In this document: piece by piece, positions 1-64,000 of the stretch
Layout: each line of letters begins with the position of its first letter
How positions within the stretch are numbered: position 1 is the stretch's first letter
Source: an uncultured Rickettsiales bacterium
GTDB taxonomy: Bacteria > Pseudomonadota > Alphaproteobacteria > Rickettsiales > 21-14-0-20-44-7
Reading direction: 5' to 3'
Length of the DNA: 64,000 bases
Assembly: GCA_964545245.1 (NCBI GenBank)
Contig: CAZJFC010000002.1
Location: 1,119-65,118, forward strand
Notes under the pieces: generated by a model
Databases searched by the model: none
Told to the model about the DNA's origin: nothing
The model's input: the letters and a program-made list of their open reading frames with translations, nothing else
Program-made: the position numbers and the translations under genes

Positions 1-507
1 GGGCTTGAAACGATCGTGCGGCTGAAAGGCGGCGACCCGTTTATTTTCGGGCGCGGCGGCGAGGAGATCGAGGCGCTTTCACAGGAAGGGATCACGTTTG
101 AGGTCATCCCCGGAGTGACGGCAGCGGCGGCTTGCGGCGCGGCTTTGGGCATCCCGCTTACGCACCGCGATTATGTTTCGGGCGTGCATTTCTTCACCGG
201 CCACGGCTGCCACGATATCGAGCCGGGGGTGGACTGGAAGATACTTGCGAGTGAGGACAAAACGCTGGCGATTTATATGGGGATAACCAATATCAGCCTC
301 ATCTGCCAAAGGCTGGTGGAACATGGGATGCAGCCCGATATGCCGGCGGTGGTGATCGAGAACGGCACGCAGGAGAACCAGCGCGAGTTCTTCGCGCCGC
401 TTTCCGCCCTGCCGGAGGTTATTGAGAAGAACGCGGTGAAATCGCCGGCGCTGATACTCATCGGCAAGGTAGTCGGTTTTGCGCTGGGTTTGAGGGGAAG
501 TCATTAG
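1..507 (+). CDS. cobA: Uroporphyrinogen-III C-methyltransferase (SUMT / CysG C-terminal type) fragment; the 5' end lies outside the window
   Basis: Frame 1 is open from base 1, so the GTG at 16 is only the ORF-caller start. The translation carries the tetrapyrrole-methylase signature RLKGGDPFIFGRGGEE and PGVTAAAACGAALGIPLTHRD. Confidence 0.8.
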   Translation, partial: GLETIVRLKGGDPFIFGRGGEEIEALSQEGITFEVIPGVTAAAACGAALGIPLTHRDYVSGVHFFTGHGCHDIEPGVDWKILASEDKTLAIYMGITNISLICQRLVEHGMQPDMPAVVIENGTQENQREFFAPLSALPEVIEKNAVKSPALILIGKVVGFALGLRGSH

Positions 508-630
508 TCGTTAGTCATTGGTCATTAGGGCCACCTCACCCCAACCCTCTCCTCATAGGAGAGGGAGCTACAATTTACCCCTGAGGGGATGGGGGAGGTG
601 GTACTCGACTCACGACTCAAGCTACTACTT
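498..630. repeat. Composite palindromic element: heptad arm + G/C-rich nested hairpins + inverted heptad arm
   Basis: Left arm is AAGTCAT TAGTCGT TAGTCAT TGGTCAT TAG; the cobA stop codon is its second TAG-containing unit. Core is CCACCTCACCCCAACCCTCTCC-TCAT-AGGAGAGGG ... CCCCTGAGGGGATGGGGGAGGTGG. Right arm is TACTCGA CTCACGA CTCAAGC TACTACT. The same core words recur at 1946, 3197 and 8793. Confidence 0.8.
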
Positions 631-1945: not shown

Positions 1946-2141
1946 GAGTCATTAGAGAGTCGTAAGTCGTATGTCGTAAGGGAAAATTCAGAATTTCTAA
2001 TGTTCCGAAGTTCCATCTTTAGCACCTCACCCCAACCCTCTCCTGATAGGAGAGGGAGCTACGGTTCACCCCTCCTATCAGGAGGGAAATATCTCTTTCA
2101 CCCCTCCTATCAGGAGGGGATGGGGGAGGTGGCCTAATGAC
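1946..2141. repeat. Composite palindromic element (heptad arm + three G/C-rich hairpins)
   Basis: Arm is GAGTCAT TAGAGAG TCGTAAG TCGTATG TCGTAAG. It is followed by CACCTCACCCCAACCCTCTCCTGATAGGAGAGGG, CCCCTCCTATCAGGAGGG and CCCCTCCTATCAGGAGGGGATGGGGGAGGTGG. The outer ends GTCATTAG...CTAATGAC are inverted. Confidence 0.8.
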
Positions 2142-3196: not shown

Positions 3197-3332
3197 TAGT
3201 CGGTGGTCTGTGGTCGGTAGTCTGTAGCTTTTCCACCTCCCCCATCCCCTCCTGATAGGAGGGGAGAATTATAACTCCCTCTCCTATCAGGAGAGGGTTG
3301 GGGTGAGTGGGGGTAAGAAACTGACACTCATG
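3197..3332. repeat. Composite palindromic element
   Basis: Arm is TAGTCGG TGGTCTG TGGTCGG TAGTCTG TAG. It is followed by CCACCTCCCCCATCCCCTCCTGATAGGAGGGG and CCCTCTCCTATCAGGAGAGGGTTGGGGTGAG, then a GACACTCA-type tail. Confidence 0.8.
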
Positions 3333-3337
3333 AGTTT

Positions 3338-5191: not shown

Positions 5192-5325
5192 TAGTCGCTG
5201 GTCTCTGGTCACTGGTCGCTAGCGAGTAGTCAGGTTGGAGCGAGCGAGGCAGGAGGCCGAGCCAGTCCTGAGCGTGCCGGAGGCACAGCCCATCGGAGGC
5301 GCAGGAGCGCCGCACGGGGGCAAAA
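5192..5325. repeat. Heptad arm plus multi-hairpin repeat (family copy A)
   Basis: Arm is TAGTCGC TGGTCTC TGGTCAC TGGTCGC TAGCGAG TAGTCAG. It is followed by GCGAGGCAGGAGGCCGAGCCAG and GAGCGTGCCGGAGGCACAGCCCATCGGAGGCGCAGGAGCGCCGCACGGGGGCAAAA. An inverted copy lies at 10815-10900 and a truncated copy at 63962-64000. Confidence 0.8.
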
Positions 5326-5371
5326 TAATAATTCAGTTGCCCGCAAGCGGGGGTTGCGATAAAACACCAGA

Positions 5372-8792: not shown

Positions 8793-8995
8793 CGTAAGTC
8801 ATAAGTCGTATGTCGTAAGTGACCACCCCCCTTCCGTCCCCCCTGATAGGGGGGAGAATCGAGGTTCCCTCTCCTATGAGGAGAGGGTTGGGGTGAGGTG
8901 CCGGGAGAGTGGGAGTGACAGTGTCAGTGGGAGAAAAACTGACACTCACACTGCCACTACAGCGCCTCCCTTCCGTCCCCCCTGATAGGGGGAAG
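8793..8995. repeat. Composite palindromic element (largest copy)
   Basis: Arm is CGTAAGT CATAAGT CGTATGT CGTAAGT. It is followed by CCCCCCTGATAGGGGGG, CCCTCTCCTATGAGGAGAGGGTTGGGGTGAGGTG, the inverted GAGTGACAGTGTCAGTGGG/CTGACACTCACACTGCCACT pair, and a second CCCCCCTGATAGGGGG hairpin. Confidence 0.8.
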
Positions 8996-9020
8996 ACAAA
9001 ATGATGGTGGTTTAAATAAC

Positions 9021-10769: not shown

Positions 10770-10814
10770 GCGGCTTTTTTAACCTAAACCCCTTAAGTTT
10801 CAAGTGGGGGAATT

Positions 10815-10925
10815 GTTTTTTTGCCCCCGTGCGGCGCTACTGCGCCTCCGATGGGCTGTGCCTCCGGCACGCTCAAGGCTGGGCCGTTCTCCTGAACGGC
10901 TACTAGCCACAATCCACTAGTATGG
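10815..10925. repeat. Multi-hairpin repeat (family copy B, inverted relative to copy A) plus a short CTAGT-type arm
   Basis: The reverse complement reads GCCGTTCAGGAGAACGGCCCAGCCTTGAGCGTGCCGGAGGCACAGCCCATCGGAGGCGCAGTAGCGCCGCACGGGGGCAAAAAA. Confidence 0.8.
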
Positions 10926-25451: not shown

Positions 25452-25685
25452 AACCTACATCTCCTTAGATACAAAATATACTTTCCCCTTGTTACCGAAT
25501 GCTTCCAAAAACGCATAGGGGAAGGGGCGGGGTCAAATGGTTGCTCCGCTAATTGTGATATTGCCTCTTCAATTTCTACTGCGTTCAATTCACCACCCCA
25601 CTAAATAGCCTTATTTTGACTTTTATTGCATTTTTCACTTCATATCCAGCAAAAAGTTGCTAGAATGGGCTATAAAGGGAGCAAA

Positions 25686-27170
25686 ATGACTGAAAAATTG
25701 CTGCATCATATGCCGGAAGTGTTCGTGTCCACGTCGGAAACAACGGTGATGGTATCCCGCGCCGTGAAATCCGGCGAACTCCGCAAACTGGCCAGCCGCC
25801 TTTATACGAAAAATCTTACCGATGCACCAGAAGCTATTGTGAAGCGGCATATCTGGCAGATTGTCAGCGGCTATTTCCCCGGTGCGCTGGTGGCGGATAG
25901 AACGGCGCTGGAAAATGCCCCGGCGAAGGACGGCTCCATCTGCCTGATTACTGCCAAGGGTGGCGAGATTGCTTTGCCCGGTATCACGCTGCGCCCCCGT
26001 CGCGGCGTTGCGCCACTGGCAACGGATTTGCCGTTTATCAGCGGGCTGTTTATCAGTTCCACGGCACGGGCTTACCTTGAAAACATGCGCGTTTCCCGTG
26101 GGCGTGACGGTGCATTGCCGCGCACACTGACCAAGCGCGAGTTGGAAGAGCGGCTCGATACGCTCATCCGGCGCAGTGGCGAAGATGCAGTCAATAAGCT
26201 GCGCGATGACGTGCGGGACATTGCGCCTGCACTTACTCTGAAACCCGAAGCCAAGGCGTTTGACGAACTGGTAGGGACATTGCTTGGCACACGCAAGGCG
26301 GCGGTGCAGTCTTCTGCTGCTAAGGCACGAAAATCCGGTCATGCTTATGACCCGGACAGGCTGGCGCTATTTCAGGCGTTGCATGGCGAATTACGCAATT
26401 CTCCCCCGGTCACACGGTTAACCAAGAAGCGCAGCACACAGGGAGAGGCAACGCTGGCATTTTTCGAATCGTATTTCTCCAACTTCATTGAAGGCACGGA
26501 ATTTGAGGTGCGGGAAGCCGCCGAGATCGTGTTTAACGGTGTTATCCCCAATGAACGTCCCGAAGATGTGCATGATGTGCTTGGCACATGGCGGCTGGTT
26601 TCTTCTACCCATGAAATGCAGAAAATACCCAAAAATCTGGATACGCTCCTACGTTTGCTAAAATCCCGCCATGCCGCCATTATGGAGCAGCGCCCGGACA
26701 AACAACCCGGTAAGTTCAAGCAATCTGGTAACCGAGCCGGTTCTACCACGTTTGTCACGCCTGAACTGGTGGAAGGCACGCTCAAGGTAGGGTTTGAACT
26801 CTATCAAAGCCTGGAAACACCCTTCCAACGCGCCGTGTTTATGATGTTTTTGATTTCCGAAGTTCACCCCTTCGCAGATGGCAACGGGCGCACCGCCCGT
26901 ATTATGATGAACGCAGAACTTGCTGCTGCCGGGGAGGAACGCATCATTATTCCTACCGTGTATCGCAGTAATTACCTTTCCGCACTGAAGGTCCTGTCAC
27001 AAACCGGCCAACCTGAGCCGTTGATTCGTACACTGGACTATGCCCAGAAATGGGTAGCTTCTGTTGACTGGGGTGGGTTGGACACGACAGAGGAGCAGCT
27101 AATGCGGTGCAATGCCTTTTTTGATCCATCCACTGCTGACGAAGAGGGAAAACGGTTGCGGCTTATATAG
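25686..27170 (+). CDS. Fic-family (AMPylase-type) protein, class II, with an AbiEi-like N-terminal region
   Basis: Fic motif HPFADGNGRTARIMMN, with the upstream inhibitory-helix motif SNFIEG, i.e. (S/T)xxxE(G/N). The N-terminus VSRAVKSGELRKLASRLYT resembles AbiEi wHTH domains. The start at 25686 has the SD AAAGGGA. Confidence 0.8.
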   Translation: MTEKLLHHMPEVFVSTSETTVMVSRAVKSGELRKLASRLYTKNLTDAPEAIVKRHIWQIVSGYFPGALVADRTALENAPAKDGSICLITAKGGEIALPGITLRPRRGVAPLATDLPFISGLFISSTARAYLENMRVSRGRDGALPRTLTKRELEERLDTLIRRSGEDAVNKLRDDVRDIAPALTLKPEAKAFDELVGTLLGTRKAAVQSSAAKARKSGHAYDPDRLALFQALHGELRNSPPVTRLTKKRSTQGEATLAFFESYFSNFIEGTEFEVREAAEIVFNGVIPNERPEDVHDVLGTWRLVSSTHEMQKIPKNLDTLLRLLKSRHAAIMEQRPDKQPGKFKQSGNRAGSTTFVTPELVEGTLKVGFELYQSLETPFQRAVFMMFLISEVHPFADGNGRTARIMMNAELAAAGEERIIIPTVYRSNYLSALKVLSQTGQPEPLIRTLDYAQKWVASVDWGGLDTTEEQLMRCNAFFDPSTADEEGKRLRLI

Positions 27171-27223: not shown

Positions 27224-27310
27224 TGGTGCCCTCGGTCGGACTCGAACCGACACATCATCGCTGATACTGCATTTTGAGTGCAGCGCGTCTACCAATTCCA
27301 CCACAAGGGC
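27224..27310 (-). tRNA. tRNA-Leu (anticodon CAA), type II with long variable arm, CCA encoded
   Basis: The reverse complement is GCCCTTGTGGTGGAATTGGTAGACGCGCTGCACTCAAAATGCAGTATCAGCGATGATGTGTCGGTTCGAGTCCGACCGAGGGCACCA. It folds with a 7-bp acceptor stem, anticodon stem CTGCA/TGCAG, loop CTCAAAA, variable stem ATCA/TGAT, and T arm GTCGG-TTCGAGT-CCGAC. Confidence 0.92.
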
Positions 27311-27448
27311 ACACCTTTTGCTCGTGCCGACTATGTGCCGACCAAAGCAATTTCTTCTTTTACCAGATACTATTTGCTCGCCTCAAGCATTTGTTATCTG
27401 TTAAATATTTTCTTCCCTACCGTTTCCCTCATGGCAAACTTGCAAAGT

Positions 27449-27486
27449 TTTGAGTCTAGCGCGTCTACCAATTCCACCACAGGGGC
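27449..27486 (-). pseudogene. 5'-half fragment of a second, diverged tRNA-Leu(CAA)
   Basis: The reverse complement GCCCCTGTGGTGGAATTGGTAGACGCGCTAGACTCAAAA matches tRNA positions 1-38 with 3 substitutions. Similarity ends right after the anticodon loop, and there is no 3' half. Confidence 0.8.
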
Positions 27487-27593
27487 ATTTGTTAACGTCT
27501 TACCAAAAAACCGGAGAAAGCAAATTTCCCCACGAAAATTGATAATTAAGCAGAGCGGAATATAACCGCTGCGACCTATTCTTCCAGCAAAAT

Positions 27594-45734: not shown

Positions 45735-46058
45735 TTAAAACTCTAAAGCGGAGATTTTTTTACAGTGAATTTCTATTTTACCAATGTAAAAACTTTTAAT
45801 ATTTAAAGTATAATGCGTTTCATCATTAGCAAAGTCCCATTCAGTGCTAAGCTGGTCTTTAAATTTATCAAGCTCCATCAAATCAAATTTAATAAAATCT
45901 TGAAGCCTGACTTGTAATCCTGCGGTCTCGCCATCACTATCGGCAAATTTTAATATTAAATGCGTACCCGCAATTTTGTACTCTTTAAGAACCGCTGTAA
46001 ATGTAACAGGTTCACTGGCATTTAATTCATTCGCAATTTCTTCAAACTCTTCTGACAT
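45735..46058 (-). CDS. Small acidic hypothetical protein inserted between pheS and pheT
   Basis: 107 aa from the ATG at 46058 (MSEEFEEIANEL...). It is AT-rich, and both junctions read TAATTATG. Confidence 0.5.
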   Translation of the reverse strand: MSEEFEEIANELNASEPVTFTAVLKEYKIAGTHLILKFADSDGETAGLQVRLQDFIKFDLMELDKFKDQLSTEWDFANDETHYTLNIKSFYIGKIEIHCKKISALEF

Positions 46059-46060
46059 AA

Positions 46061-47098
46061 TTAAAACCCATAATGTTCTAGCCAACGCACGTCACTTTCG
46101 AAAAACTGGCGTAAGTCAGGGATGTTATATTTCAACATTGCCATGCGTTCGATGCCTGCGCCGAATGCAAAACCTGAATATTCTTCCGGGTCGATTCCCA
46201 CGTTTTTAAGCACGTTAGGGTGAACCATTCCCGCGCCCATGATTTCCAGCCACTTGCTATTCTCCCACTCAATATCAACCTCCGCGGAAGGTTCGGTGAA
46301 CGGGAAGTAAGAAGGGCGCAGGCGCATCTTGCGCTCGCCGAAGAACTGGGTGATGAATTCGTTGAGAGTCCATTTCAAATGGCCGAAATTCACGTTCTTA
46401 TCGATATAAAGCGCCTCAACCTGATGGAACATCGGGGTGTGCGTCATGTCGGAATCGGAACGGTAGGTGCGCCCCATCGAGAAAATACGGAATGGAGGTT
46501 TACCGTTTTCCATAGTGCGGATCTGCACCGGCGAAGTATGCGTACGCAGGACGCGGAGTACGCCTGCACCCCCCTCTTTCCCCCCTATTAGGGGGGATGA
46601 AAGGGGGGTGGCCGGCGGCAGATAAAACGTATCATGCATCTGGCGGGCAGGGTGGCTTTCCGGGATGTTCAGCGCAGTGAAGTTGTGGTAATCATCCTCG
46701 ATATTCGGGCCATCCTTGAATTCAAATCCAAGGCTGCCCAGAATTTCCGCGATCTCACTCTGAACCTGTGATATCGGGTGGATAGAGCCTTTGCGCTCCG
46801 GGCGTACGGGAAGGGTGACGTCCACCTTCTCATTCACCAGTTTTGCATTGATTTCGGCAATTTCCAGTTCGGCTTTCTTTGACTCGATAACAGATTCAAG
46901 CGCCTGCTTCACCTCATTCACCTCTGCGCCAAAGGCTTTTTTTTCTTCCGGCGGGAGCAAGCCTATTTTGGACATTTCGGCGGTGAGCAAACCTTTCTTG
47001 CCAAGATATTTCACGCGCAGATCATCAAGCACGCGCAGATTACCAGCTTTGCTGATCTCGTTATTCGCTTCGGTTTTTATATTTGCAAGTGCGCTCAT
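46061..47098 (-). CDS. pheS: Phenylalanine--tRNA ligase alpha subunit (carries an in-frame repeat insertion)
   Basis: HPARQMHDTFY...LRTHTSPVQIRTM, FRIFSMGRTYRSD and GAGMVHPNVL. Confidence 0.92.
   Translation of the reverse strand: MSALANIKTEANNEISKAGNLRVLDDLRVKYLGKKGLLTAEMSKIGLLPPEEKKAFGAEVNEVKQALESVIESKKAELEIAEINAKLVNEKVDVTLPVRPERKGSIHPISQVQSEIAEILGSLGFEFKDGPNIEDDYHNFTALNIPESHPARQMHDTFYLPPATPLSSPLIGGKEGGAGVLRVLRTHTSPVQIRTMENGKPPFRIFSMGRTYRSDSDMTHTPMFHQVEALYIDKNVNFGHLKWTLNEFITQFFGERKMRLRPSYFPFTEPSAEVDIEWENSKWLEIMGAGMVHPNVLKNVGIDPEEYSGFAFGAGIERMAMLKYNIPDLRQFFESDVRWLEHYGF
46560..46620. repeat. G/C-rich palindromic element inside the pheS coding sequence
   Basis: CACCCCCCTCTTTCCCCCCTATTAGGGGGGATGAAAGGGGGGTG. 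It is translated as ATPLSSPLIGGKEGGAG between the conserved DTFY and LRTHTSP blocks. Confidence 0.75.
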
Positions 47099-47100
47099 TT

Positions 47101-47156
47101 CTAGTCCCTGGTCTCTAGTCGCTAGCTAGCAGCCAGTGACTAGCGACTATTGACTC
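47101..47156. repeat. Stand-alone heptad-arm dyad (no G/C core) between rplT and pheS
   Basis: CTAGTCC CTGGTCT CTAGTCG CTAGCTA | GCAGCCA GTGACTA GCGACTA TTGACTC. The two halves are imperfect inverted repeats around GCTAGCTAGC. Confidence 0.75.
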
Positions 47157-47899: not shown

Positions 47900-47927
47900 C
47901 TAAACGCTAAACTCTAAACTCTCGCCA
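47900..47927. repeat. Heptad arm (CTAAACN type), right member of the inverted pair, directly upstream of hisS
   Basis: CTAAACG CTAAACT CTAAACT CTCGCCA, the complement of the AGTTTAG units at 47765. Confidence 0.65.
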
Positions 47928-56872: not shown

Positions 56873-57574
56873 ATGAAGTTGAAAGATTTGCTTAATGATA
56901 AAATCGAGATAACTCCGTCCGATATGGAGATTTTTAACTTATACGACCACACGCCCGCAGATGGGGACAAGTTAACTTTTCGTGATGTCATTGATTCGTT
57001 GTATAAGCACGAAGAATTCATGTCCCGTTCCAGTGTGGGGGAATTTGCAGATGCTGTAATCAAAAGGGCTTTAAAGGAGCGTCAAGGGGATGAAGCCTTT
57101 AAGGAAGAGGCGGCACAGGCGGCGGCGGGAGAACAGTTTGAGCAAAAACTTACCCGCGCAGCGTCACTTTTAGGGATGTTGGATAGAATTGATAAGGATA
57201 AAGAAGAGTTTGGGCGATTAGATAAGTTGAGGTTGCAGGAAGGGCTGTCCGCGCTGGAGGGAATAATCACCGATAAGCGGGATTTTTATGCAAAAAGCGC
57301 AGAAAGCAGGAAAGAGCGCTACACGCCGGAGTTTATAGAAAAACGGGCAGAAAAAATGATGCAGGGTTTTGATTGTGACAATCCGGGAGCGACCGCTGAG
57401 CAAAAAGACGCGTATTACCGCGAAGTGCTGCAGAAGCTGACAGACGCTCCCCAAAAAGACGCGAATATGGCTGTGCGGTGCAAAGAGCTTATCGGGAAAG
57501 TTAATGAAATCGCCGCTGATTTGGGAATCAACCTGCATGGCCGTGGTGAGCCGGACAGGGGAAAAGGCGGCTAA
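56873..57574 (+). CDS. Hypothetical charged/coiled-coil protein (233 aa)
   Basis: An ORF with no recognisable motif. It converges on murB, and the 3' ends overlap by 4 nt. Confidence 0.4.
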   Translation: MKLKDLLNDKIEITPSDMEIFNLYDHTPADGDKLTFRDVIDSLYKHEEFMSRSSVGEFADAVIKRALKERQGDEAFKEEAAQAAAGEQFEQKLTRAASLLGMLDRIDKDKEEFGRLDKLRLQEGLSALEGIITDKRDFYAKSAESRKERYTPEFIEKRAEKMMQGFDCDNPGATAEQKDAYYREVLQKLTDAPQKDANMAVRCKELIGKVNEIAADLGINLHGRGEPDRGKGG

Positions 57575-58617
57575 GCTTTGCCGATAACCTTGATTTCCGG
57601 CTCAAGTTTTATACCTGACCTTTCAAATACACGTTTCTGAATTTCAAGGATAAGGTTCTCAAGGTCGGAAGCTGTTGCAGTGCCGGTATTGATAATAAAA
57701 TTGCAGTGCTTTTCGGAAACCTGCGCGCCGCCGATTGTAAACCCACGCAATCCTGCTGCATCTATGAGCTGCCAGGCTTTTAACCCTCCCCCATCCCCTC
57801 CCTCAGGGAGGGGAGAAGAAAGGGATTTCACTCCCTCAGGGAGGGGGAAGTTTAAGCCTCCCACCGCTTGCGGGGGGAGGTTGGAGGGGGGGGCGGGGTT
57901 TTTGAACGTGCTGCCCCCGGTGCGGGTGCGAATTGGCTGTGACTCCTCCCGCGCGGTTTTGATCTCATTCATTTTTGCATAAATCGCGGTAGGTTCCCCC
58001 GGTTCACCGCGCAGCACCGCTCCGGTCACGATGTAATCATCCCCCGCAAGGAGAGCGGATTTGCGGTAAGAGAATTTGAGGTCATCATTGCTTAGGGTTT
58101 TAACATTGCCGCTAAAGTCAACCACCGTAGCTTCCACCAGAACATCCTTGGTTTCCTTGCCATACGCGCCGCCGTTCATCTTCACTGCGCCGCCGATCGT
58201 GCCGGGAATCCCCACCAGGAATTCCAGCCCGGCAATTCCGTTTTCCGCGGCGAAAGTTGCAACATTTACGTCAAGCGCGGCGGCGCCCACTTTAATAGTT
58301 GCCGGGTTTAAAGACTCCGAAACTCCGAAACTCCGAAACTCCGAAACTTCTACCTTGGCAAATTCCCTCCCCAGCTTGATTACCACGCCCTCAATCCCGC
58401 CATCGCGGATGATGATATTCGAGCCGACGCCAAGCACCGTAACCGGGATATCCTCCGGTTTATTTTTCAAAAAATGCACAAGGTCATCAATATCGGCGGG
58501 CTTGAACAGCACCTCGGCAGGGCCGCCCACGCGGAACCAGTTGGTTTTGCTGAGGTCGGCGTTTTCAGTATAACGCCCACGGATTTGTGGGAGGTTATTA
58601 AGCAACTTTATTACCAA
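57571..58617 (-). CDS. murB: UDP-N-acetylenolpyruvoylglucosamine reductase (carries two in-frame repeat insertions)
   Basis: [44 protein letters not shown] and [11 protein letters not shown]. The start is uncertain: TTG at 58617 or 58605, overlapping the murC end. The ORF-track ATG at 58824 lies deep inside murC. Confidence 0.85.
57783..57897. repeat. G/C-rich multi-hairpin element inside the murB coding sequence
   Basis: CCCCTCCCTCAGGGAGGGG, CTCCCTCAGGGAGGGGG and CCTCCCACCGCTTGCGGGGGGAGG. It is translated as [38 protein letters not shown] between the conserved FKNP and AWQLID blocks. Confidence 0.75.
58314..58349. repeat. Octanucleotide tandem repeat ACTCCGAA x4.5 inside the murB coding sequence
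   Basis: Perfect copies lie at 58314, 58322, 58330 and 58338, with a partial copy at 58346. The minus strand GAGTTTCG x4 encodes [13 protein letters not shown]. Confidence 0.9.
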
Positions 58618-60016
58618 GTTTCTCAAGTCCCTCAGGAAGTTTGGCCGCCATATAGGTAATTGACCCCGCGCCAAGGCATACCACAATATCCCCCGGTTTT
58701 GTATTCTCGGAAACCAGCTTCGGCAAATCCGCCTCATTCTCCAGCCCGGTTGCCCATTTATGGCCGTGCTGTTTGATTCCGGCCACCAGCGAATCGCGGC
58801 TGATGCCTTCGATCGGCTCCTCACCAGCGGTATAAATATCGGTCACGATAACCTTGTCGGCATCGTTGAAGCATTTGCAGAATTCCTCGAACAGATCGCG
58901 CACGCGGGTGAAGCGGTGCGGCTGGATGACGGCCACCACGCTGCCTTTGGTCACGCTGCGCGCGGCCTGCAATGTCGCCATGATCTCGGTCGGGTGGTGG
59001 GCGTAATCATCAATGATGCTTACCCCGTTCACCTCGGCGATTTTGGTGAAGCGGCGCTTAACCCCCTCAAACCCGGCAAAAGCCTTCTTGATGATCTTAT
59101 CGCGGATTTTAAGCTCATGCCCAACCGCAACCACCGCCAACGAATTAAGGATATTATGGTTACCCGGCATCGGCACATGGATATCGGCAATGGTGGTGTC
59201 GCCAATCACCGCATCATAGGTGGAGCCGTTCGCGTCGGTGCGGATATTCACCGCTTTCACATCTGCCTGCGGGTTAATGCCATAGGTAATGATGCGCCTG
59301 TCCTGGATCTGCCCGATGAGGTTCTGCACTTCCTTATGGTCAATGCACATAACCGCGAAGCCATAGAACGGGATATTGCTCACGAAGCTTTTGAATGCTT
59401 CCTTCGCCTTTTCAAAGCTGCCGTAATAATCAAGGTGTTCCGGCTCGATATTCGTAACCACCGCCACACTCGCCGGGATTTTGTTGAATGTCCCGTCAGA
59501 TTCATCCGCCTCCACCACCATCCATTCACTTTCGCCGACATGGGCGTTGGTGCCGAGCGCGTTGATGATGCCGCCATTGATGATGGTAGGGTCAAGGTTC
59601 GCCTCTTTCAAAAGCGTTGCCATCATGGTTGTGGTTGTGGTTTTGCCGTGCGTGCCAGCAATCGCAATTGCAATTTTAAGGCGCATCAGCTCGGCTAACA
59701 TCTCCGAGCGTCGCACAACCGGGATGTGGGCTTCACGCGCCGCGACAACCTCCGGGTTGTCTGCCTTAACCGCTGAGGAAATCACCACCACGCTTGCGCC
59801 TTCGATATTTTCGGCTTTTTGCCCCTGCATCACTTTAAGCCCAAGTTTTTGCAGGCGCTCAGTGTTGTAATTGCTGGAAAGGTCGGAGCCTTGCACGGTG
59901 AATTTGAGGTTATGCAGCACTTCGGCGATACCGCTCATCCCGATGCCGCCGATGCCGACAAAATGGATAGTGCCGACTTCGAGCGAGAGCTTGCTGGTGA
60001 GGGGGAGGATTTTCAT
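58598..60016 (-). CDS. murC: UDP-N-acetylmuramate--L-alanine ligase
   Basis: [30 protein letters not shown], and Mur ligase middle and C-terminal domains. Confidence 0.92.
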
Positions 60017-63734: not shown

Positions 63735-64000
63735 ATTCATTGCGAGGCAGGGGCCGAGCCAGCTCTCAACCCAATTTATGTCATTCCGGAATTTTTACCA
63801 GCAGGGAAAAATATCCGGAATCCACAACATTGGGGTTTCGGCAAAAAGTCAGGAGACTTTTTGCGTAATAAAATATCTCCTGACATTTTATTACTGGATC
63901 CCCGTGCAAAAAATTCTTCTGAATTTTTTCACGAGGATGACGATGGGGGGAAAATTGAGAAGCTGTTCAGGAGAACGGCTCAGCCCTGAGCGTGCCGGAG
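63735..64000. repeat. Cluster of repeat modules, truncated by the window end
   Basis: GCGAGGCAGGGGCCGAGCCAG (compare 5244), the hairpin TCATTCCGGAAT...ATATCCGGAATCC, and from 63962 GCTGTTCAGGAGAACGGCTCAGCCCTGAGCGTGCCGGAG, which is the start of the copy A/B family. Confidence 0.65.

Follow-up and report, generated by a model that had tools for sequence, protein, structure and literature searches.

In-frame copies of a short palindromic repeat family in pheS and murB of an uncultured alphaproteobacterium

Small palindromic repeats and their occurrence in coding regions

Rickettsia palindromic elements (RPEs) are AT-rich repeats. They comprise 100-150 bp, are confined to Rickettsia and Wolbachia and were detected in frame within Rickettsia genes, including those for PheT and IleRS (RPE-7), at positions that are thought to be compatible with the protein fold (PMC1779305, PMC3767692). 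Additionally, REPs have occasionally been reported inside the coding regions of known proteins (PMC3733652). Bacterial MITEs are 70-300 bp long, have terminal inverted repeats that match a parent IS, and are flanked by direct repeats. The cyanobacterial small dispersed repeats SDR1-8 (Elhai et al. 2008, Genome Res 18:1484) are reportedly 21-27 nt in length and often embedded in tandem heptamer repeats. They are also reported to be confined to Nostocaceae.

The repeat family described here was identified in a stretch of 64,000 nt from an uncultured alphaproteobacterium (hereafter the window), which contains seven loci of the family, including five intergenic ones and one each within murB and pheS (Table 1). 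Like RPE-1 to RPE-10 (Ogata et al. 2000) and the Wolbachia elements, these repeats are dispersed palindromes that are present both in intergenic regions and in frame within essential alphaproteobacterial genes, leave the ORF unbroken and include aminoacyl-tRNA synthetases among their hosts. Judged by the descriptions, they are set apart from RPEs by their length of 44 nt (reaching about 115 nt where several hairpins are combined), by their C6/G6 runs and by the occurrence of the mini-form in contigs of 35-70% GC, including HIP1-rich ones. The genes of the window include those for GGDEF proteins, a histidine kinase and an ABC transporter, and the organism looks free-living by gene content.

With the REP/BIME/REPIN class the family shares short (20-40 nt) GC-rich imperfect palindromes, the formation of inverted doublets, as in the copy at 3233-3310, and a high copy number, which amounts to about one copy per 9 kb in the window. 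It differs from classic REPs in the nested two-stem form with conserved non-pairing linkers and in the genic share, which looks much higher, with two of the seven window copies and about 20 of 41 metagenomic contexts. The conserved GTAG/CGTC tag of REPs was found flanking neither the seven window copies nor the 41 metagenomic contexts. No RAYT/Y1 transposase (PF01797) was detected among the window ORFs of at least 90 aa, and essentially all of these ORFs lacked Pfam matches to any transposase, RAYT, Y1 or integrase. The repeats resemble MITEs (ERIC, Correia/NEMIS, BOX, RUP, SPRITE) in being non-autonomous and able to fuse in frame with host ORFs. The outer arms of the pheS element act as terminal inverted repeats; the pheS copy comprises only 44 nt, and neither a target-site duplication nor a parent IS was seen. 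SDRs are very small (tens of nt), hairpin-forming dispersed elements with diverse insertion contexts, whereas the present family measures at least 44 nt and resides in an alphaproteobacterium. Four intergenic copies of the window adjoin heptamer arrays, the one listed in Table 1 and similar ones at 1958-1980, 3197-3227 and 8793-8820, and some metagenomic copies are located on HIP1-rich contigs that are probably cyanobacterial.

Table 1. Coordinates of the pheS and murB features and of the repeat copies in the window
Feature	Position	Strand	Basis
pheS CDS (phenylalanine--tRNA ligase alpha subunit, 345 aa)	46061..47098	minus	ORF, Pfam, HMMER, AlphaFold2
44-nt nested palindromic mini-element in pheS	46567..46610	minus	sequence, folding, 30/33 nt vs 8823-8855
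14 element-encoded codons T164-G177 (TPLSSPLIGGKEGG)	46568..46609	minus	codon comparison with uninserted alleles L084, L085, L004
Three-hairpin family copy in frame in murB	57783..57897	minus	sequence and Pfam (MurB_C, FAD_binding_4)
murB ORF as listed	57571..58824	minus	Pfam domains
Intergenic two-hairpin family copy	531..602		pattern/hairpin scans
Intergenic three-hairpin family copy	2022..2135		pattern/hairpin scans
Intergenic two-hairpin copy, REPIN-like inverted doublet	3233..3310		sequence, folding
Intergenic two-hairpin copy	8822..8900		left unit 8823-8855 closest in the window to the pheS copy
Intergenic half copy, left unit only	8965..8996		motif scan
Tandem heptamer array AGTCATT x4.3, adjoining the copy at 531	499..528		Tandem Repeats Finder

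The pheS gene and its 44-nt palindrome

The pheS product has the class II core PF01409, the N-terminal coiled-coil PF02912, the HPAR..DTF and LRTHTS signatures and motif 3 of this protein class; both domains are assigned in precomputed Pfam data to P0001, a protein identical to the window PheS. A HMMER comparison with the E. coli PheS protein (PDB 3pco) yielded an E-value of 3.9e-114, and the AlphaFold2 model returned PDB PheS chains as Foldseek matches. The invariant columns of an alignment of 29 PheS sequences are present, comprising L184 R185 T186 H187 T188 S189 and FPFTEPSAE. As judged from the deduced protein, the gene is intact and its catalytic motifs are conserved, and a pseudogene reading was rejected, since the ORF is unbroken and all invariant PheS residues are kept. 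The exact PheS sequence is on record from one contig only, which is metagenome-assembled.

A preliminary description of this DNA had placed a palindrome in pheS at 46560-46620, and a nested palindrome of 44 nt was indeed located within this interval. Its plus-strand sequence is CACCCCCCTCTTTCCCCCCTATTAGGGGGGATGAAAGGGGGGTG. In the coding sense the element reads CACCCCCC-TTTCA-TCCCCCCT-AAT-AGGGGGGA-AAGA-GGGGGGTG, with a perfect outer stem (CACCCCCC/GGGGGGTG), a perfect inner stem (TCCCCCCT/AGGGGGGA) and non-complementary linkers between the stems. The DNA folds with -24 kcal/mol (z = -5.0 to -5.5), a value that was equalled by none of 200 shuffled sequences, and the mRNA folds with -45.4 kcal/mol (z = -5.7). 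The element is of low complexity owing to its C6/G6 runs, and each strand contains only two G-runs. No direct repeat flanking the pheS copy was found by eye.

The element is read in frame between DTFY and LRTHTS, as the preliminary description had proposed, giving ...DTFYLPPA-TPLSSPLIGGKEGG-AGVLRVLRTHTS. Ribosomal bypass or another form of recoding was rejected, as plain in-frame reading restores the LRTHTS frame and skipping of 44 nt would not. The HMMER alignment with E. coli PheS opened an 18-residue gap exactly at the insert. With respect to the nearest relatives the net insertion amounts to 13 codons (39 nt), instead of the 16-18 extra residues estimated before; the conversion of the ancestral HDG to AG, with loss of the His codon and replacement of Asp by Ala, makes the net gain 13 and not 14 codons. 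The expectation of a normally short spacer held for E. coli (6 aa) but not for most Alphaproteobacteria, with 11 aa, or for the solved structure of T. thermophilus PheS, with 21 aa. Among 120 PheS homologues the spacer between DTFY and LRTHTS comprises 6 to 34 aa, most often 11, and the insertion site is, on this alignment, a loop of naturally variable length.

In the AlphaFold2 model of the window PheS, residues 164-180 form a coil with pLDDT values below 50, whereas the catalytic core is modelled with confidence. The element-encoded segment is probably a disordered extension of the loop, which is presumably surface-exposed, and the insert-carrying enzyme is presumably active. The loop is anchored seven residues from His187/Ser189. 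These residues are the counterparts of T. thermophilus H178/S180, which have a role in substrate binding.

Distribution of the repeat family

The family consists of nested C-run/G-run palindromes with repeat units of about 33-36 nt, and the window copies other than that in pheS span 72-115 nt. In a MAFFT alignment of 15 repeat units the C/G runs forced the units out of register, and the family was therefore traced by explicit pattern and hairpin scans. The motif CCCCCCTNNNNGGGGGG was found with at most one mismatch in six strand-matches at three sites of the window, compared with 0.02 expected. The left 33 nt of the pheS copy share 30 identical positions with the intergenic sequence 8823-8855, with 0.00 such matches expected from dinucleotide shuffles, and on this nucleotide similarity the pheS palindrome is shown to be a member of the C-run/G-run family. 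For the intergenic copy at 3233-3310, folding yields one long hairpin (-30 kcal/mol, z = -6.4). None of the repeats matched Rfam, the sole match in the window being a tRNA at 27227-27310.

The murB copy adds about 38 residues between FKNP and LKAWQLID. In the listed murB ORF the Pfam domains do not start before residue 104, and the true start is therefore probably located downstream of the GTG given there. In the coding sense the first 28 nt of the murB copy exactly match the pheS element of the relative L001. The last hairpin unit of the murB copy and the pheS copy of the window share one reading frame, with 13 residues aligned with LSSPLIGGKEGGAG. The preliminary description had taken this shared frame to argue for a systematic mode of insertion; the frame is indeed shared by pheS and murB but is no property of the family, since the genic metagenomic copies use at least five combinations of frame and orientation. 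About four of the six frames of a family copy are free of stop codons. Given the many frames in use and the frequency of stop-free ones, survivorship by itself would lead to the two in-frame copies seen in essential genes.

P0002 and P0003, the PheS proteins closest to that of the window (about 80% identity), lack the insert and read LPPAHDGxLRV, as do P0009, P0010 and P0016-18, and most of the clade is uninserted; the uninserted allele has the DNA sequence CTG CCC CCC GCG CAT GAT GGC. Comparison of these alleles shows LPPAHDG as the ancestral state and the pheS insertion as derived. Among the matches listed, the nearest named genomes are two assemblies designated 'Alphaproteobacteria bacterium', with a PheS identity of 73-74%. 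Elements of the same family are present at the same PheS loop in four other alphaproteobacterial lineages. P0013 (L001/L002) and P0012 (L003) carry two-hairpin copies, the insertion of the former being represented in two assemblies of one relative, and single-hairpin copies with the same architecture are found in the more distant proteins P0067 (L086) and P0085 (L087), which are only 57-58% identical to the window PheS. P0013 is nested among uninserted sequences with a bootstrap value of 95 in a neighbour-joining tree from which the loop columns were left out, and these comparisons show at least one independent gain at the PheS loop. The L003 element is read in another frame, which argues for a separate insertion event. 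In L036 (Virgifigura deserti) and in L088 this loop contains palindromes that are unrelated to the family.

In a scan of metagenomes the mini-element turned up in 41 different contexts with a GC content of 35-70%, about 20 of which lie inside long ORFs. Eight of the copies were checked with Pfam and are located in confirmed genes, encoding Maf, a metallophosphatase, an Asn synthase, two TnpB proteins, URO-D, Uma2 and a PEP-utilising enzyme. The metagenomic copy L110 is identical to the pheS copy at 41 of 42 nt, and both contain the non-palindromic linkers TTTCAT/AAAGA. No flanking direct repeats were seen among the metagenomic copies inspected by eye.

Two findings had been named beforehand as speaking against an origin of the pheS insert from the element, namely its presence in close relatives lacking the repeat and the lack of significant nucleotide similarity to the intergenic copies. 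Both were checked, and the outcomes favour an element origin: the closest relatives and most of the clade lack the insert, those relatives that have extra residues there possess recognisable family copies, and the similarity to 8823-8855 is significant. Accordingly, of the earlier proposal of a tolerated or selected insertion rather than an artefact, the tolerated, element-derived insertion stands, whereas selection is not needed, as survivorship suffices.

Origin of the genic copies and implications

The data are explained best, and with high probability, by a non-autonomous, REP/RPE-like element that persists within genes only as in-frame, stop-free copies in permissive loops. A short C-run/G-run repeat would have entered pheS after the lineage had split from its nearest sequenced relatives, landing just past the conserved Leu-Pro-Pro-Ala codons that follow DTFY, where it would have replaced the His codon, altered the next codon and added a net 39 nt. 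The translated segment, rich in Pro, Ser, Leu, Gly, Lys and Glu, would lengthen a loop that already varies among functional PheS enzymes, and insertions elsewhere in pheS or in other frames would have been lost, as the gene is essential. Such a filter would account for the in-frame position of both genic window copies, for the repeated hits at the same PheS loop in other lineages and for the unrelated palindromes that also gather there. As for the mechanism, our leading guess is that an enzyme recognising hairpins mobilises the element in trans, for instance a REP-associated Y1 transposase whose gene lies in another part of the genome. Neither a target-site duplication nor a pair of filled and empty sites within one population was seen, so that the mobility of the family is deduced from its distribution.

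The five same-family insertions at one site could reflect sequence-directed targeting rather than pure survivorship. A preference of the family for this DNA site, with survivorship as a secondary factor, partly overlaps with the explanation given above and is a possible, though doubtful, alternative; microhomology-mediated recombination, template switching or a site-specific enzyme acting at the C-run (CTG CCC CCC GCG) may tentatively be considered as the route. The C-run of the uninserted alleles resembles the C-run terminus of the element itself, the left C-run of the element starts at the Pro codons after DTFY-L/F in five lineages, and the murB copy likewise begins directly after a Pro codon (AAC CCC | GCC CCC CCC). 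However, the palindromes without C-runs in the same loop (L036, L088) point to tolerance at the protein level, the genic metagenomic copies generally lack a preceding Pro codon, as in L098 (...SYGSDR|TPLTSPLVGG), and a target-site duplication is not evident.

A broader reading, which we hold only tentatively, regards the repeat as a distinct and currently mobile mini-element that crosses phyla, inserts in a directed manner and has struck the PheS loop independently in at least 3-5 lineages. Its hosts might comprise Alphaproteobacteria as well as the organisms behind cyanobacteria-like and high-GC contigs, a speculative range that draws on near-identical copies such as those of L110 and pheS. 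That either an enzyme specific for hairpins or microhomology at C-runs directs the insertion is a similarly uncertain part of this reading.

It is improbable that the insertion is adaptive and kept by selection, either as an mRNA hairpin affecting translational pausing or mRNA stability in the pheST operon or as a new interaction loop of PheRS. Both stems of the palindrome are perfectly complementary, with a strong RNA hairpin and no visible decay, and the peptide frame SSPLxGGxxGG recurs in pheS and murB of the window, in L001, L086 and L087 and in the L098 metallophosphatase; but a recent insertion accounts equally well for an intact palindrome, most close relatives are without the insertion, the host genes are unrelated and include the decaying-prone TnpB, many frames are in use across the family, and the insert is modelled as disordered. 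That the segment is no insertion at all, but an ancestral loop or one that arose locally, for example through template switching at the native C-run, and resembles the repeats merely by its low complexity, or else an assembly artefact or part of a pseudogene, is highly improbable: the C6/G6 runs inflate the apparent similarity and the protein is known from a single metagenome-assembled record, but the matches to L110 and 8823-8855 run through the non-palindromic linkers, LPPAHDG marks the ancestral state in many relatives, the ORF with all invariant residues is intact, a comparable insert is present in the assemblies L001 and L002, and preservation of the frame is unexpected from an artefact. 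The uninserted relatives together with the nucleotide similarity to intergenic copies thus argue for an element-derived, tolerated insertion.

Most documented cases of in-frame 'selfish DNA' in essential genes concern the RPEs of Rickettsia, and REPs are mentioned sporadically in this context. The present data extend this known kind of event to a much smaller, GC-rich element of 44 nt in an uncultured alphaproteobacterium that looks free-living by its genes. Here one PheS loop, a few residues upstream of LRTHTS, has been struck repeatedly by the family and by unrelated palindromes. The loop provides replicated natural insertions for distinguishing between targeting and tolerance, and the same insertions may bear on aminoacylation, or on translation via the mRNA hairpin of -45 kcal/mol. 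For the guanylate kinase of R. conorii, which contains an RPE, forms with and without the element have reportedly been compared biochemically. In conserved marker genes of metagenome-assembled genomes, annotators and pipelines for alignment or phylogeny have to reckon with Pro/Ser/Gly segments derived from repeats and should take them neither for assembly errors nor for homologous characters. If the cross-phylum, directed reading were true, such elements would represent an unrecognised general route to Pro/Ser/Gly-rich surface loops in essential enzymes, and the PheS loop would serve as a replicated experiment of nature on the tolerance of such insertions.

The palindromic element in pheS

The 44-nt palindrome noticed in the preliminary description was located within an ORF that sequence and structure comparisons identify unambiguously as pheS (Table). 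The deduced protein is identical to the database protein P0001, bears PF01409 and PF02912, and matches E. coli PheS (PDB 3pco) with an E-value of 3.9e-114; PheS chains in the PDB were also retrieved with its AlphaFold2 model. The coding-sense sequence of the element is CACCCCCC-TTTCA-TCCCCCCT-AAT-AGGGGGGA-AAGA-GGGGGGTG; both of its nested stems are perfect, and its two linkers are not complementary. Its DNA fold (-24 kcal/mol, z about -5) and its mRNA fold (-45.4 kcal/mol, z = -5.7) are far better than those of shuffled controls. As originally described, the element is translated in frame, yielding residues T164 to G177 (TPLSSPLIGGKEGG) flanked by DTFY159 and L184RTHTS189, and HMMER opened a gap of 18 residues exactly at this position in the comparison with E. 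coli PheS.

The polarity of the insertion was deduced from 29 aligned PheS homologues. The closest of them, P0002 and P0003 (about 80% identical) plus P0009, P0010 and P0016-18, are devoid of it and all contain LPPAHDGxLRV at the insertion site. The uninserted allele CTG CCC CCC GCG CAT GAT GGC AGC CTG CGC GTT corresponds to CTG CCG CCG GCC [ACC ... GGT] GCA GGC GTA CTC CGC GTC in the window, which contains 14 additional element codons, has no His codon and encodes Ala in place of Asp, giving a net increase of 39 nt. With the nearest relatives uninserted, this comparison of alleles indicates that the insertion is derived, and the 16-18 extra residues initially proposed are replaced by a net gain of 13 residues versus these relatives.

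The spacer that separates DTF(Y/W) from LRT(H/Q)TS comprises 6-34 residues in the best 120 homologues, with a mode of 11. Since the spacers in solved structures span 6 residues in E. coli to 21 residues in T. thermophilus (positions 154-174, 1b70_A), functional enzymes tolerate a long segment at this loop; the earlier view of a normally short spacer applies to E. coli but not universally. In the AlphaFold2 model, residues 164-180 form a coil with pLDDT below 50 and the catalytic core is confident. The loop is probably surface-exposed. The insert is anchored near His187 and Ser189, the equivalents of T. thermophilus H178 and S180, which make substrate contact.

Two further features adjoin the gene. 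A palindrome of 48 nt, composed of the inverted heptamer-like units TAGTCCCTGGTCTCTAGTCGCTAGC / GCTAGCAGCCAGTGACTAGCGACTA, is located between rplT and pheS directly upstream of the pheS start codon. Additionally, pheS and pheT have a small ORF between them, at a location conserved in the window and the external loci L001 and L084, with variable content: 116 aa without a Pfam match in the window, 149 aa with a Pfam match to WapI (immunity protein) in L001 (4262-4711) and 93 aa in L084 (3798-4079).

Recurrent insertions at the PheS loop

Two-hairpin copies of the same family occupy the same site in two clade members, namely P0013 (L001/L002, two assemblies of one relative), which reads as a segment of 31 aa, and P0012 (L003), which reads LPPPTPSLKGGESITTPSLREGAGGGFL. 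Over its first 28 nt, the pheS copy of L001 agrees at every position with the beginning of the window's murB copy; therefore, one subfamily is common to different organisms and genes. In a neighbour-joining PheS tree built with the loop columns removed, P0013 is surrounded by uninserted sequences in one clade (bootstrap 95), and window PheS and P0012 are placed on separate branches near the uninserted P0003. The L003 element is also read in a different frame. The parsimonious reading of these sequences would be at least two, probably three, independent gains at the loop.

Single-hairpin C7...G7 elements of the same architecture were also detected at this site in P0067 (L086) and P0085 (L087), which are only 57-58% identical to window PheS. 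Moreover, other Alphaproteobacteria have palindromes of unrelated sequence in this loop, namely Virgifigura deserti (L036, 10409-10474; perfect 14-nt inverted repeat) and L088 (1080-1154; GTCAGGT/ACCTGAA heptamer-like arms, z = -5.3), with L089 (10475-10561) as a weaker case. Judged by these homologues, the PheS loop is a general sink for palindromic insertions.

The repeat family inside and outside the window

The same units make up seven loci in the window, five intergenic and one each in pheS and murB. In a typical unit, a short linker joins the outer arm CCACC(T/C)C(C/A)CCC to the hairpin CCC(C/T)(T/C)CC-loop-GG(A/G)(G/A)GGG; full copies comprise inverted doublets or triplets closed by a complementary outer arm, and the pheS copy represents the version with a single hairpin. 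Its left 33 nt agree with 8823-8855 at 30 of 33 positions, a stringency at which 100 dinucleotide-preserving shuffles yielded no match, so that similarity to the intergenic copies was indeed found. The murB copy is read as FKNP[37 aa]LKAWQLID in an ORF with the Pfam domains MurB_C and FAD_binding_4. Because its last unit (13 aa) uses the reading frame of the pheS copy (LSSPLIGGKEGGAG), the claim that murB is another gene with an element peptide in this frame holds.

Coordinates of pheS, the repeat copies and further features in the window
Feature	Position	Strand	Remark
pheS	46061-47098	minus	345-codon ORF enclosing the 44-nt element
pheS family copy	46567-46610	plus	44-mer as quoted
murB family copy	57783-57897		three hairpins; in frame
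Intergenic family copy	531-602
Intergenic family copy	2022-2135
Intergenic family copy	3233-3310		one long hairpin when folded
Intergenic family copy	8822-8900
Intergenic family copy	8965-8996
Palindrome upstream of pheS	47102-47149
Small ORF between pheS and pheT	45735-46085		overlaps pheS 3' end
Octamer array in murB ORF	58314-58348		35 nt, 100% matches
Heptamer arrays near intergenic copies	499-528, 1958-1980, 3197-3227, 8793-8820		abutting or within about 40 nt
Other heptamer arrays	5194-5217, 47900-47922
Different palindrome	8901-8964		between two copies of 8822-8996
Core of this palindrome	3311-3335		adjoins copy 3233-3310
Repeat of about 85 nt	5250-5334, 10810-10894, 63958-64000		89-91% identity
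tRNA gene	27227-27310		Rfam, 54 bits
Fic-domain gene	25626-27170		adjoins tRNA gene
tRNA 3' duplication	27272-27311 / 27448-27487		40 nt, 93% identity, 176 nt away

The murB ORF also contains the perfect tandem octamer ACTCCGAA (4.4 copies), read as 12 aa within the coding sequence; such an 8-nt period makes a coding sequence prone to slippage, and the array looks like a second insertion in murB. The heptamer arrays (AGTCATT, AGTCGTA, TAGTCGG and CGTAAGT; 3-4 copies each) resemble the STRR heptamers and SDR contexts of cyanobacteria. The palindrome at 8901-8964 is of another kind, GAGTGACAGTGTCAGTGGGAG...ACTGACACTCACACTGCCACT, and its core AAACTGACACTCA reappears beside the copy at 3233-3310; like BIMEs, such intergenic stretches appear to be assembled from several types of repeat. 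The 85-nt repeat (approximate length) has no relation to the C/G-run family and occurs in both orientations, all three copies at or near gene boundaries. The duplicated 3' part of the tRNA gene may be what is left of the attachment site of an integrated element.

A metagenome scan with the query CCCCCCTNNNNNCCCCCCTNNTAGGGGGG resulted in 47 loci representing 41 distinct contexts, 22 of which contain the complete nested form. Their GC content spans 35-70%, the HIP1 octamer of cyanobacteria is abundant on several of the contigs, and one copy (L110) differs from the pheS copy by 1 mismatch over 42 positions. About 20 copies lie within long ORFs, and in eight Pfam-confirmed genes the element is inside the domain (Maf, metallophosphatase, asparagine synthase, two TnpB, URO-D, Uma2 and a PEP-utilising enzyme); the metallophosphatase peptide TPLTSPLVGGKEGG is nearly the PheS insert peptide. 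The genic copies show at least five combinations of frame and orientation, and the frame common to pheS and murB, though real, is consequently no rule of the family.

Three genic mini-element copies (L119, L129 and L133) reside in TnpB-like genes on low-GC contigs, assigned to the IS605 OrfB family by Pfam for L119 and L129 and by similarity only for L133; L129 and L133 contain HIP1. Such copies may reflect abundant tolerant targets or a link to the IS200/IS605 machinery. A long ORF resembling a xanthine-dehydrogenase-type enzyme (L107) and one for a putative large membrane protein (L100) each contain, in addition to the scanned element, a second Pro/Gly-rich segment in its style (PPPSQGGAGGGW; PPQIGGEEG), which suggests several in-frame insertions per gene.

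Placement of the element and relation to known repeats

The best-supported account combines a non-autonomous REP/RPE-like element with a survivorship filter: the element would insert, and an essential gene would keep only copies that are in frame, stop-free and in permissive loops. Such a filter would explain both the in-frame state of the two genic window copies and the recurrence at the PheS loop. In-frame survival is easy for the composition of the family because about four of six frames per copy are stop-free, and we estimate that an ORF would stay open after about one in five random insertions. Sequence targeting may contribute to the placement at the PheS loop, as C-runs like the element end occur in the uninserted pheS allele and at the murB junction; however, the unrelated palindromes in this loop and metagenome junctions without Pro codons argue for tolerance as the main factor. 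The initial observation is confirmed and the interpretation given with it is supported, but of the tolerated or selected insertion that it suggested, the data support tolerance and not selection.

None of the window ORFs with at least 90 aa gave a Pfam match to a transposase or Y1 domain, a target-site duplication could not be seen at the pheS copy or the metagenomic copies inspected by eye, and no Rfam family matched the repeats in a search of the window. In-frame palindromic repeats are a hallmark of the Rickettsia RPEs, including RPE-7 in PheT and IleRS (PMC1779305, PMC3767692), REPs have been noted within coding regions (PMC3733652), and in-frame repeat fusions have been reviewed in the literature. 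The 44-nt pheS copy is shorter than RPEs, which measure about 100-150 bp, and its host is outside the groups with reported RPEs; the element is without the GTAG/CGTC tags of classified REPs, and no duplication of the MITE type was seen at the copies inspected. Lying next to heptamer arrays, it is reminiscent of cyanobacterial SDR elements.

In-frame palindromic repeats are an established phenomenon; in the searched literature, we found no apparent description of the element family, its small size, its breadth or the PheS hot spot. That several repeat families have repeatedly used a single loop of an essential synthetase, along with a mini-element that crosses phyla, deserves focused follow-up.
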